Made by a program: the position numbers and the translations under genes
Assembly (NCBI RefSeq): GCF_003334315.1
Contig: NZ_QOWR01000059.1
Source: Escherichia coli
Lineage (GTDB): Bacteria > Pseudomonadota > Gammaproteobacteria > Enterobacterales > Enterobacteriaceae
Length of the DNA stretch: 28,938 nucleotides
Strand: one strand, 5' to 3'
Part shown: one piece after another, positions 745 to 15,406 of the stretch
How the letters are laid out: every line of letters begins with the position of its first letter
Numbering within the stretch: position 1 is the first letter of the stretch
Notes under the pieces: generated by a model
The model's input: the letters and a program-made list of their open reading frames with translations, nothing else
Told to the model about the DNA's origin: nothing
The model's database searches: none

Positions 745-1611
745 ATGGCAGCAAAGATTATTGACGGTAAAACGATTGCGCAGCAGGTGCGCTCTGAAGT
801 TGCTCAAAAAGTTCAGGCGCGTATTGCAGCCGGACTGCGGGCACCAGGACTGGCCGTTGTGCTGGTGGGTAGTAACCCTGCATCGCAAATTTATGTCGCA
901 AGCAAACGCAAGGCTTGTGAAGAAGTCGGGTTCGTCTCCCGCTCTTATGACCTCCCGGAAACCACCAGCGAAGCGGAGCTGCTGGAGCTTATCGATACGC
1001 TGAATGCCGACAACACCATCGATGGCATTCTGGTTCAACTGCCGTTACCGGCGGGTATTGATAACGTCAAAGTGCTGGAACGTATTCATCCGGACAAAGA
1101 CGTGGACGGTTTCCATCCTTACAACGTCGGTCGTCTGTGCCAGCGCGCGCCGCGTCTGCGTCCCTGCACCCCGCGCGGTATCGTCACGCTGCTTGAGCGT
1201 TACAACATTGATACCTTCGGCCTCAACGCCGTGGTGATTGGCGCATCGAATATCGTTGGCCGCCCGATGAGCATGGAACTGCTGCTGGCAGGTTGCACCA
1301 CTACAGTGACTCACCGCTTCACTAAAAATCTGCGTCATCACGTAGAAAATGCCGATCTATTGATCGTTGCCGTTGGCAAGCCAGGCTTTATTCCCGGTGA
1401 CTGGATCAAAGAAGGCGCAATTGTGATTGATGTCGGCATCAACCGTCTGGAAAATGGCAAAGTTGTGGGCGACGTCGTGTTTGAAGACGCGGCTAAACGC
1501 GCCTCATACATTACGCCTGTTCCCGGCGGCGTTGGCCCGATGACGGTTGCCACGCTGATTGAAAACACGCTACAGGCGTGCGTTGAATATCATGATCCAC
1601 AGGATGAGTAA
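745..1611 (+). CDS. folD: Bifunctional methylenetetrahydrofolate dehydrogenase / methenyl-THF cyclohydrolase
   Basis: 288-aa [26 protein letters not shown]...; length and sequence match my memory of E. coli FolD; TAA stop at 1609..1611. Confidence 0.96.
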
Positions 1612-4545: not shown

Positions 4546-5268
4546 GTGGCGACACTCTTTATTGCAGATCTTCATCTCTGCGTGGAAGAACCGGCGATCA
4601 CCGCCGGTTTTCTGCGTTTTTTAGCGGGGGAAGCCCGCAAGGCCGACGCGCTGTATATTCTTGGCGATCTGTTTGAAGCATGGATTGGCGACGACGATCC
4701 CAACCCACTCCATCGCCAGATGGCGGCAGCGATCAAAGCGGTGTCCGATTCCGGCGTTCCCTGTTATTTCATTCATGGCAACCGTGATTTTCTGCTCGGC
4801 AAACGCTTTGCCCGTGAAAGCGGCATGACATTATTGCCGGAAGAAAAGGTGCTCGAACTTTATGGTCGCCGGGTGTTGATTATGCATGGCGACACGCTGT
4901 GCACCGATGACGCGGGTTATCAGGCTTTTCGCGCCAAAGTCCACAAACCCTGGCTGCAAACGCTATTCCTCGCCCTGCCGTTGTTTGTGCGCAAACGCAT
5001 TGCCGCGCGAATGCGAGCGAACAGTAAAGAAGCCAACAGCAGTAAATCGCTGGCGATCATGGACGTTAACCAAAACGCGGTAGTCAGTGCGATGGAAAAA
5101 CATCAGGTGCAATGGCTGATCCACGGGCATACCCATCGCCCGGCGGTACATGAACTTATCGCCAACCAGCAACCTGCTTTTCGCGTGGTACTCGGTGCCT
5201 GGCATACAGAAGGTTCGATGGTGAAAGTCACGGCGGATGACGTTGAGCTGATTCATTTTCCGTTTTAA
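4546..5268 (+). CDS. lpxH: UDP-2,3-diacylglucosamine pyrophosphohydrolase (lipid A biosynthesis)
   Basis: 240-aa [29 protein letters not shown]... calcineurin-like phosphoesterase motifs (DLH, GNRD, GHTH); GTG start 2 nt after ppiB stop. Confidence 0.94.
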
Positions 5269-5298
5269 AAAACCCGCAACTTTGCTGATTTCACAGCC

Positions 5299-5314
5299 AC
5301 GCAACCGTTTTCCT
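5299..5314 (+). promoter_or_regulatory. PurR operator (PUR box) upstream of purEK
   Basis: ACGCAACCGTTTTCCT resembles the PUR-box consensus ACGCAAACGTTTTCNT; located about 70 nt upstream of purE ATG. Confidence 0.6.
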
Positions 5315-5385
5315 TGCTCTCTTTCCGTGCTATTCTCTGTGCCCTCTAAAGCCGAGAGTTGTGCACCACAGGAGTTTTAAGACGC

Positions 5386-5895
5386 ATGTCTTCCCGCAAT
5401 AATCCGGCGCGTGTCGCCATCGTGATGGGGTCCAAAAGCGACTGGGCTACCATGCAGTTCGCCGCCGAAATCTTCGAAATCCTGAATGTCCCGCACCACG
5501 TTGAAGTGGTTTCTGCTCACCGCACCCCCGATAAACTGTTCAGCTTCGCCGAAAGCGCCGAAGAGAACGGTTATCAGGTGATTATTGCGGGCGCAGGCGG
5601 CGCGGCGCACCTGCCAGGTATGATTGCCGCCAAAACGCTGGTGCCGGTGCTGGGCGTGCCAGTACAGAGCGCCGCACTGAGCGGTGTCGATAGCCTCTAT
5701 TCTATCGTACAAATGCCGCGCGGCATTCCGGTGGGTACGCTGGCGATTGGTAAAGCTGGCGCGGCAAACGCGGCGTTACTGGCAGCACAAATTCTTGCGA
5801 CTCATGATAAAGAACTGCACCAGCGTCTGAATGACTGGCGCAATGCCCAGACCGACGAAGTACTGGAAAACCCGGACCCGCGAGGTGCGGCATGA
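5386..5895 (+). CDS. purE: N5-carboxyaminoimidazole ribonucleotide mutase
   Basis: Start taken at ATG 5386 ([20 protein letters not shown]...) preceded by GGAG at 5371..5374; 169 aa; the ORF-track start at 5359 lacks an RBS. Confidence 0.95.
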
Positions 5896-6959
5896 AACAG
5901 GTTTGCGTCCTCGGTAACGGGCAGTTAGGCCGTATGCTGCGTCAGGCAGGCGAACCGTTAGGCATTGCTGTCTGGCCAGTCGGGCTGGACGCTGAACCGG
6001 CGGCGGTGCCTTTTCAACAAAGCGTGATTACCGCTGAGATAGAACGCTGGCCGGAAACCGCATTAACCCGCGAGCTGGCGCGCCATCCGGCCTTTGTGAA
6101 CCGCGATGTGTTCCCGATTATTGCTGACCGTCTGACTCAGAAGCAGCTTTTCGATAAGCTCCACCTGCCGACTGCACCGTGGCAGTTACTTGCCGAACGC
6201 AGCGAGTGGCCTGCGGTGTTTGATCGTTTAGGTGAGCTGGCGATTGTTAAGCGTCGCACTGGTGGCTATGACGGTCGCGGTCAATGGCGTTTACGCGCCG
6301 ATGAAACCGAGCAGTTACCGGCTGAATGCTACGGCGAATGTATTGTCGAGCAGGGCATAAACTTCTCTGGTGAAGTGTCGCTGGTTGGCGCGCGCGGCTT
6401 TGATGGCAGTACCGTGTTTTATCCGCTGACGCATAACCTGCATCAGGACGGTATTTTGCGCACCAGCGTCGCTTTTCCGCAGGCCAACGCACAGCAGCAG
6501 GCGCAAGCCGAAGAGATGCTGTCGGCGATTATGCAGGAGCTGGGCTATGTGGGCGTGATGGCGATGGAGTGTTTTGTCACCCCGCAAGGTCTGCTGATCA
6601 ACGAACTGGCTCCGCGTGTGCATAACAGCGGTCACTGGACACAAAACGGTGCCAGCATCAGCCAGTTTGAGCTGCATCTGCGGGCGATTACCGATCTGCC
6701 GTTACCGCAACCAGTAGTGAATAATCCGTCGGTGATGATCAATCTGATTGGTAGCGATGCGAATTATGACTGGCTGAAATTGCCGCTGGTGCATCTGCAC
6801 TGGTACGACAAAGAAGTCCGTCCGGGGCGTAAAGTGGGGCATCTGAATTTGACCGACAGCGACACATCGCGTCTGACTGCGACGCTGGAAGCCTTAATCC
6901 CGCTGCTGCCGCCGGAATATGCCAGCGGCGTGATTTGGGCGCAGAGTAAGTTCGGTTAA
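5892..6959 (+). CDS. purK: N5-carboxyaminoimidazole ribonucleotide synthetase (ATP-grasp)
   Basis: 355-aa [30 protein letters not shown]...; ATGA overlap with purE stop (translational coupling). Confidence 0.95.
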
Positions 6960-6975
6960 CTGGTGCTCTATTCTT

Positions 6976-7133
<158 letters not shown>

Positions 7134-7153
7134 CAAATGTCTAATGCCTACGA

Positions 7154-8047
7154 CTACAGCGAAATACAGGTCCCCGCTTCGCCCGCCAGCGTCTCTTCAA
7201 TTCGCGATAACGCCCCAATCCACGCGGGTTTACCACCGCTTCTGACATAACCACTCACCGCCGTTACCTTCGGCCCCATCGAACCATCGGCTTTGGCAAA
7301 TGGCGCTAACTCATCCGGTGTGGCATGGCGAATGGCGCGTTGCTGCGGCGTTCCCCAGTTTTCATATACCGCATCAGCATCAGTGAGGATCACCAGCCCA
7401 TCGGCGTTAATCTGCTCAGCGAGCAACGCAGCAGCGAGATCTTTATCAATCACCGCTTCACTCCCTGCCCCATCTTCCGTCACAGGCACACCGCCGCCGC
7501 CACTGCAAATCACCACATGCCCCTCTTTGAGCAACAACTCGATGGCTTCGCTGTCGAGAATTTTACGCGGTTGCGGAGACGCCACCACCCGGCGCAAATA
7601 TTTACCATCACGTTTCATCTGCCAGCCGTAAGCCGCTTCCAGTGCCTCTTGTTCTTCTGGCTGATAAACCGGACCAATAAATTTCTCTGGCTGCAAAAAC
7701 GCCGGATCATCAGGCGAAACCTCAATGCGCGTCAGCACCGTCGTCACGGGCGGCATCTGCGGCTGTGCGCTCAAACTCTGCGCCAGCATATAGCCAATCA
7801 TCCCCTGACTTTCTGCCACCAGCACATCCAGCGGATACGGTTCTACCTCTTTCCACGCCAGATTCTGCAATGCCAGCAGCCCCACCTGCGGCCCGTTGCC
7901 GTGAACAATCGCCAGCCGATAAGAACGGGCCAGGCGCGCCAGCGCGGGTACAGCACTGGCGATATTGCGATATTGATTTTCTGCCGTCAGCGCCTCACCG
8001 CGCTGGAGTAAGGCGTTTCCCCCAAGAGCTACAACCAGTGTTTTCAT
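7154..8047 (-). CDS. ybcF: Carbamate kinase (ArcC-like; reported as AllK)
   Basis: 297-aa [43 protein letters not shown]... amino-acid kinase family; start overlaps ylbF stop (ATGA). Confidence 0.9.
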
Positions 8048-15225: not shown

Positions 15226-15267
15226 GTCATACCACTCGCCTGATTATTTTTAGCTATGTTGGATTTT

Positions 15268-15294
15268 GCCACGGTTTATACCGTGGCTTTTTTT
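15268..15294 (+). terminator. Rho-independent terminator of allD-allC-allE operon
   Basis: GCCACGG-TTTATA-CCGTGGC followed by TTTTTTT. Confidence 0.75.
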
Positions 15295-15302
15295 GTAACA
15301 TT

Positions 15303-15406
15303 GCCTGATGCGCTTCGCTTATCAGGCCTACATGATCTCTGCAATATATAGAATTTGCGCGATTTTCAGGAAGGATATGGTACTCATGCCGCATCCGGCA
15401 TGAGTA
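15303..15406. repeat. REP-like palindromic elements between convergent allE and glxK
   Basis: GCCTGATGCGCTTCGCTTATCAGGCCTACA (REP-type) at 15303..15332 and palindrome TACTCATGCC-GCATCC-GGCATGAGTA at 15381..15406. Confidence 0.6.

Follow-up and report, generated by a model that had tools for sequence, protein, structure and literature searches.

The window analysed here, a stretch of 28,938 nucleotides from a strain of Escherichia coli other than K-12, is the folD-cysS-ppiB-lpxH-purEK-ybcF-all region of the E. coli chromosome, an assignment made because a 401-bp piece around the site discussed below was matched in all 5426 complete E. coli genomes and because lpxH and purE carry their RefSeq annotations; the same 401 bases are 100% identical to those of strain 120899 and of several other genomes. 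The lpxH gene (4546..5268; TIGR01854, 389 bits) is followed by a 117-bp spacer and then by the operon purEK on the plus strand, whose first gene, purE (5386..5895; TIGR01162, 219.9 bits, cut-off 149.6), encodes N5-carboxyaminoimidazole ribonucleotide mutase and whose second, purK (5892..6959; NF004678, 673 bits, cut-off 444), encodes N5-CAIR synthase, all three genes being annotated as such in RefSeq. The start of purK overlaps the stop of purE by 4 nt (ATGA). Within the lpxH-purE spacer, 31 bp past the lpxH stop and 72 bp ahead of the purE ATG (5386), lies a 16-bp imperfect palindrome at 5299..5314, a feature without strand, which consists of ACGCAAC followed by CGTTTTCCT and has a central CpG at 5306-5307 (box positions 8-9). 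Read directly from the window, 5299..5314 is ACGCAACCGTTTTCCT, as an initial sequence-only reading had given it in proposing a PUR box, the operator of the purine repressor PurR, upstream of purEK; its reverse complement is AGGAAAACGGTTGCGT.

PurR is a purine repressor of the LacI family, the dimer of which binds its operators together with the corepressor hypoxanthine or guanine; adenine is converted to hypoxanthine in the cell. Crystal structures such as 1PNR place the hinge helices of the repressor, with Leu54 inserted, at the central CpG of the operator, and the PDB holds further PurR structures, including 1BDI and 2PUA. Work of 1989-1990 reportedly found that PurR together with hypoxanthine or guanine represses purEK, which ChIP-chip later confirmed on a genome-wide scale, and the original E. 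coli studies, attributed to He in 1990, Tiedeman in 1989, and Watanabe in 1989, are said to have included footprinting and primer extension. Direct in vitro binding of PurR to the E. coli purE fragment is reportedly part of this record, as cited in other papers. The K-12 purR gene itself lies outside the window and was found in 5425 of the 5426 complete E. coli genomes.

A PurR log-odds matrix was constructed from the 27 ChIP-bound sites that are left in Table 1 of Cho 2011 (28 instances) once purE is omitted. Under this leave-one-out position weight matrix (PWM), the site at 5299..5314 scores 19.63 bits and ranks first among the 57,846 positions that the two strands of the window offer, far above the 7.8 bits on this matrix to which the FIMO cut-off of Cho 2011 (p = 1e-4) corresponds, and it differs from two statements of the PurR consensus, ACGCAAACGTTTTCNT and ACGNAAACGTTTGCNT, by one and two mismatches, respectively; the fit to the consensus that had been claimed from the letters thereby holds under a formal matrix scan. 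Among the 28 ChIP-bound sites, which range from 11.9 to 25.4 bits, the site ranks 17th. Its exact p-value is 1.5e-7, which gives 0.0085 expected matches per window and 3e-5 in the 117-bp spacer, and 22 of 1000 simulated Markov-1 windows attained 19.6 bits at any position. The palindrome ACGCAAACGTTTGCGT, searched with up to three mismatches, likewise has the PUR box as its sole match in the window; taken alone this test is non-significant, at least one match having arisen in 28 of 100 shuffled windows, and the palindrome search was for this reason replaced by the PWM. The central CG is found in all 27 of the other ChIP-bound sites.

The position of the box relative to the purE promoter was obtained from a mapped transcription start site (TSS), which the Kim 2012 supplement (PMC3415461) places on the minus strand at NC_000913 552,365; it is supported by 32 reads and gives a 5′UTR of 42 nt. 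With K-12 version 2 coordinates on NC_000913 equal to 557,709 minus the window coordinate, +1 of purE falls at 5344 on the plus strand, within a conserved gCCCTc block at 5341..5346, and the 51-nt purE promoter string in the same supplement (PMC3415461), CAGCCACGCAACCGTTTTCCTTGCTCTCTTTCCGTGCTATTCTCTGTGCCC, is identical to window 5294..5344. The 42-nt 5′UTR accordingly occupies 5344..5385 (+) and contains a Shine-Dalgarno sequence, AGGAG, at 5370..5374. An extended -10 element, TGcTATTCT, is located at 5328..5336 (+), with its TG at 5328-5329 (-16/-15) and its hexamer TATTCT at 5331..5336 (-13..-8); it is conserved at a fixed offset from the box and agrees with the TSS. From the spacing to this conserved -10 and from the mapped TSS, the -35 slot was assigned to TTTTCC at 5308..5313 (+), 17 bp ahead of the -10, which matches TTGACA at three of six positions and lies wholly within the PUR box. 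Counted from the TSS at 5344, the box thus spans -45..-30 with its centre at -37.5 and overlaps the -35 slot of the sole mapped purE promoter, which bears out the earlier statement that it stands at the expected position, and it is placed at the upstream edge of the zone from -35 to -10 that Cho 2011 describes.

A strict scan for sigma-70 promoters and terminators over 5150..5450 returned no promoter and no terminator; it missed the purE promoter because the -35 matches at three of six positions only. Extended -10 promoters can function without -35 contacts, and on this established footing the extended -10 would account for the purE promoter working despite its weak -35. An Rfam scan returned no RNA element in the purE 5′UTR (5344..5385), and an RNA regulator in the purE leader, considered as a candidate, was dropped on that result. 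A weak internal TSS in purE, at window 5810 (K-12 551905) and 88 nt ahead of purK, is supported by 2 reads in the Kim 2012 supplement (PMC3415461); either a minor promoter for purK only or noise may account for it.

Across E. coli a 60-bp core (5290..5349) was found in 5425 of 5426 genomes and is identical in 4161. Three core variants were inspected, and their changes fall either at 5316..5320 in the spacer or on the upstream side of the box, leaving the PUR box intact. The purEK operator of E. coli K-12 MG1655 has the identical 16-mer, lpxH-purE spacer, TSS, and promoter string, such that the element shows no differences between that strain and the window.

In about one fifth of complete E. 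coli genomes, exemplified by IHE3034, EC08, and SCU-112 (loci L122 and L123), the upstream neighbour of purE is a hypothetical coding sequence of 109 aa (WP_001188438/9) and not lpxH. In these genomes homology to the window (here about 5269..5298) is lost no more than about 3 bp ahead of the PUR box, and the box and the core promoter are untouched.

Conservation beyond the species was evaluated on purE loci fetched with a degenerate DNA pattern from purE codons 12-27, a retrieval independent of the operator. It yielded 120 loci that represent no fewer than 36 genera of Enterobacterales, and the 115 loci whose upstream sequence extends for 200 nt or more were analysed; the genera include Salmonella, Citrobacter, Enterobacter, Klebsiella, Yersinia (with Y. 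pestis), Serratia, Erwinia, Pantoea, Pectobacterium, Dickeya, Brenneria, Hafnia, Budvicia, and Leminorella. Within 220 nt, the top leave-one-out PWM match in 114 of the 115 loci is the PUR-box 16-mer or a variant of it by 1-2 nt. The top match within 220 nt at the locus L091 scores only 7.5 bits; in the box-anchored alignment the box is present in all 115 loci, in one of them 242 nt upstream, and we infer that this distant box is that of L091. Eighty of the 115 boxes are identical to that of E. coli and the others differ from it at one or two positions, mainly position 1, which varies between A and G, and position 7; the central CG is invariant in all 115.

The same alignment shows that conservation is confined to a few elements held at constant spacing. 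Information content is 0.17 bits per column upstream of the box, 1.89 in the box, 0.45 in the next 11 bp, 1.57 in CaTGnTATnnTcT, 1.23 in the gCCCTc start region, and 0.16 beyond it (box-anchored, 115 loci). The TG of the extended -10 is present in all 115 species at a fixed offset from the box, and TATnnT is likewise invariant in all of them at +32..+37 from the box start, whereas purE itself lies anywhere between 118 and 242 nt from the box, depending on the species. From these constant offsets, set against the variable distance to the gene, it follows that the conserved unit is the operator together with the core promoter in fixed phase. As judged from the aligned sequences, the control region of purE forms a rigid cassette of some 48 bp, retained in no fewer than 36 genera and composed of the PUR box, a fixed 13-bp gap to the TG, the extended -10, and the GC-rich gCCCTc. 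The gCCCTc block (5341..5346) around the purE TSS is conserved and the remainder of the 5′UTR is not; its conservation could reflect constraints on the start site or the discriminator, for instance stringent control.

Occupancy and repression at this site are documented. The PurR ChIP-chip survey of E. coli K-12 by Cho 2011 (PMC3159470) lists in its Table 1 a purE-purK region at 552,127-552,626 with a motif at 552,395-552,410 that reads AGGAAAACGGTTGCGT, the exact reverse complement of the box as read in the window, which agrees with the claim of a PUR box upstream of purEK. The log2 enrichment of this region was 2.08 with adenine and 0.86 without it, and purEK is counted there among the operons that the PurR-hypoxanthine complex represses in E. 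coli (Cho 2011, PMC3159470). In the same survey (PMC3159470), the usual place of a PurR motif is the interval bounded by the -35 and -10 elements, as in 14 of 32 regulated promoter regions, a placement from which its authors conclude that PurR regulates transcription initiation. In Y. pestis, a purR deletion mutant showed purE and purK increased by 3.0-3.8 log2, and purified PurR shifted the purE-purK promoter in an EMSA (PMC10673613); the upstream region of purE in Y. pestis (locus L083) carries a 16-mer identical to the PUR box of E. coli.

The purF operator, which is seen in PDB 1PNR and related structures, also binds PurR and is likewise a pseudo-palindrome of 16 bp centred on a CpG. In the orientation of the Cho table its sequence, AAGAAAACGTTTGCGT, agrees at 14 of 16 positions with that of the purE site, which has G and not T at position 10 and G and not A at position 2. 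The purB and purR operators share repressor and motif with the purE box; they lie inside an ORF and block elongation as a roadblock (Cho 2011, PMC3159470), whereas the box of purE covers the -35 slot, ahead of the TSS, and, because of this placement, acts at initiation. The PurR and PurBox of Bacillus subtilis and Lactococcus have in common with the enterobacterial system the name and a role in the control of pur genes, but differ from it in DNA motif, mechanism, and protein family.

We conclude, with a probability of roughly 0.93 and with no weighty argument to the contrary, that 5299..5314 is the PurR operator (PUR box) of purEK, at which the corepressor-bound PurR dimer acts. The feature is already known, being E. 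coli's own PUR box of purEK and not just a related one. The site combines the motif, the central CpG, a location at a promoter beside purine genes, the presence of the repressor gene, and conservation, together with occupancy and PurR-dependent repression, the latter two taken from the literature. By analogy with the purF operator, a PurR dimer carrying hypoxanthine or guanine would bind 5299..5314 and place its hinge helices on the central CpG. The box, spanning -45 to -30 of the sigma-70 promoter of purE, takes in the whole -35 slot of a promoter that has a weak -35 and probably relies on its extended -10, TGcTATTCT. Because the box covers the entire -35 slot, bound PurR most likely keeps RNA polymerase off the purE promoter, presumably by steric exclusion at the -35 region, and plentiful purines would then lead to less initiation of purE-purK transcription. 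The value of the PUR box in the present analysis is that of a positive control: a textbook operator was recognisable by eye in this window, and a procedure that combines a PWM, a mapped TSS, and a phylogenetic footprint recovers a known site cleanly. The by-products are modest, namely the quantified rigidity of the box and extended -10 across Enterobacterales and a separate lead in folD, described below.

An improbable alternative, although the best of those we weighed, accepts that PurR binds the box and holds that it represses by a route other than exclusion from the -35, for instance by a bend that traps the closed complex or by blocking promoter escape. PurR bends its operator DNA by roughly 45-50 degrees. 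The invariant TG of the extended -10 together with a -35 that matches at three of six positions means that contact with the -35 may be dispensable, and the rigid phasing of the box and the -10 across 115 species would suit a mechanism that depends on geometry. Against this, the box occupies the place usually taken by sigma region 4 and the alpha C-terminal domain, and Cho 2011 (PMC3159470) infers control of initiation from the placement of the motifs. We hold that PurR at the purEK operator more probably acts by denying RNA polymerase access to the -35 region.

A second alternative, which we regard as very improbable, is that the 16-mer is mainly a promoter element (a -35 or UP-like sequence) or is bound by a different member of the LacI family, for instance RbsR, Cra, or GalR, with its likeness to PurR sites being incidental. 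The right half of the box does coincide with the -35 slot, and a AAACGTTT-like core is common to LacI-family operators; all 16 bp are conserved, however, among them the left arm (-45..-38), to which the -35 hexamer does not extend. Readings of the site as a Cra, GalR, RbsR, CytR, or LacI operator were rejected at 6-10 mismatches to the operators of these paralogues, in contrast to the 1-2 mismatches to the PurR consensuses, in a lead-level check against their consensus strings. The adenine response of the PurR ChIP-chip enrichment at the locus also speaks against this alternative, as does the derepression of purEK upon deletion of purR in Y. pestis, a species with an identical box. Chance likeness to the PurR consensus without function has a negligible probability, since the ease with which shuffled windows produce loose palindromes is outweighed by the PWM p-value and the 3e-5 matches expected in the spacer, by near-invariance of the box in 115 species between unconserved flanks, and by the in vivo occupancy documented in Cho 2011 (PMC3159470). 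The chance-match reading and the readings of another regulator or of a promoter element only are effectively refuted, leaving the PurR operator of purEK as the interpretation of 5299..5314.

Position 7 of this operator departs from the pattern of the other sites. Its C, which corresponds to the G at position 10 when the site is written as in the Cho table, occurs in none of the 27 other ChIP-bound sites in the same orientation, and the symmetry-equivalent C is found in the purL, purB, and guaB sites. Replacement of position 7 by A or T raises the matrix score from 19.5 to about 25 bits; the 115 loci have C in 97 cases, T in 14, and A in 4. A speculative reading, and in our estimation an unlikely one, is that the operator is deliberately sub-optimal and would thereby set the purine threshold of purEK, with the start region providing a second, PurR-independent input through ppGpp/DksA or the sensing of the initiating nucleotide.

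The second-best match to the PurR matrix in the window lies inside folD (745..1611), at 766..781 (+), where GGTAAAACGATTGCGC covers codons 8-13 (G-K-T-I-A-Q) and scores 15.5 bits (p = 2.3e-6, with 0.13 matches expected per window). The folD gene supplies 10-formyl-THF for purine synthesis. Exact GGTAAAACGATTGCGC is kept in 27 of the 29 Enterobacterales loci that include the 5′ end of folD, which span Salmonella to Serratia, Yersinia, Dickeya, Erwinia, and Pectobacterium and in which FolD protein identity falls to as low as 83%. Among 28 full-length folD genes it is the most conserved 16-mer of the gene, and codons 8-13 rank first of 275 six-codon windows, with a third-position identity of 0.97 (mean 0.63, SD 0.17). 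Ravcheev et al. are said to have predicted folD as a PurR target by comparative genomics in 2002. The folD TSS lies at window 705 in the Kim 2012 supplement (PMC3415461), which puts GGTAAAACGATTGCGC at +62..+77, and intragenic PurR sites are known in purB and purR (Cho 2011, PMC3159470). The folD 16-mer could be a PurR operator of the same intragenic kind. The ChIP-chip table of Cho 2011 (PMC3159470) does not contain folD, and the literature searched yielded no mention of folD as a PurR target. A rival explanation is a general synonymous constraint at the 5′ ends of genes, given that folD codons 2-6 are conserved as well.

Further observations were made elsewhere in the window. The purK-ybcF spacer (6960..7153) differs from that of strain 120899 by a 10-nt indel, with ybcF at 7154..8047 in the window and at 7164..8057 in L125, and by eye it resembles what we take to be palindromic repeats of the REP type. 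In the allE-glxK intergenic region, two Rfam matches lie on the minus strand: the sRNA STnc480 at 15232..15298, with 87.6 bits and above the gathering threshold, and ES036/CssrF at 15324..15366, with 38.1 bits (cut-off 37.6).
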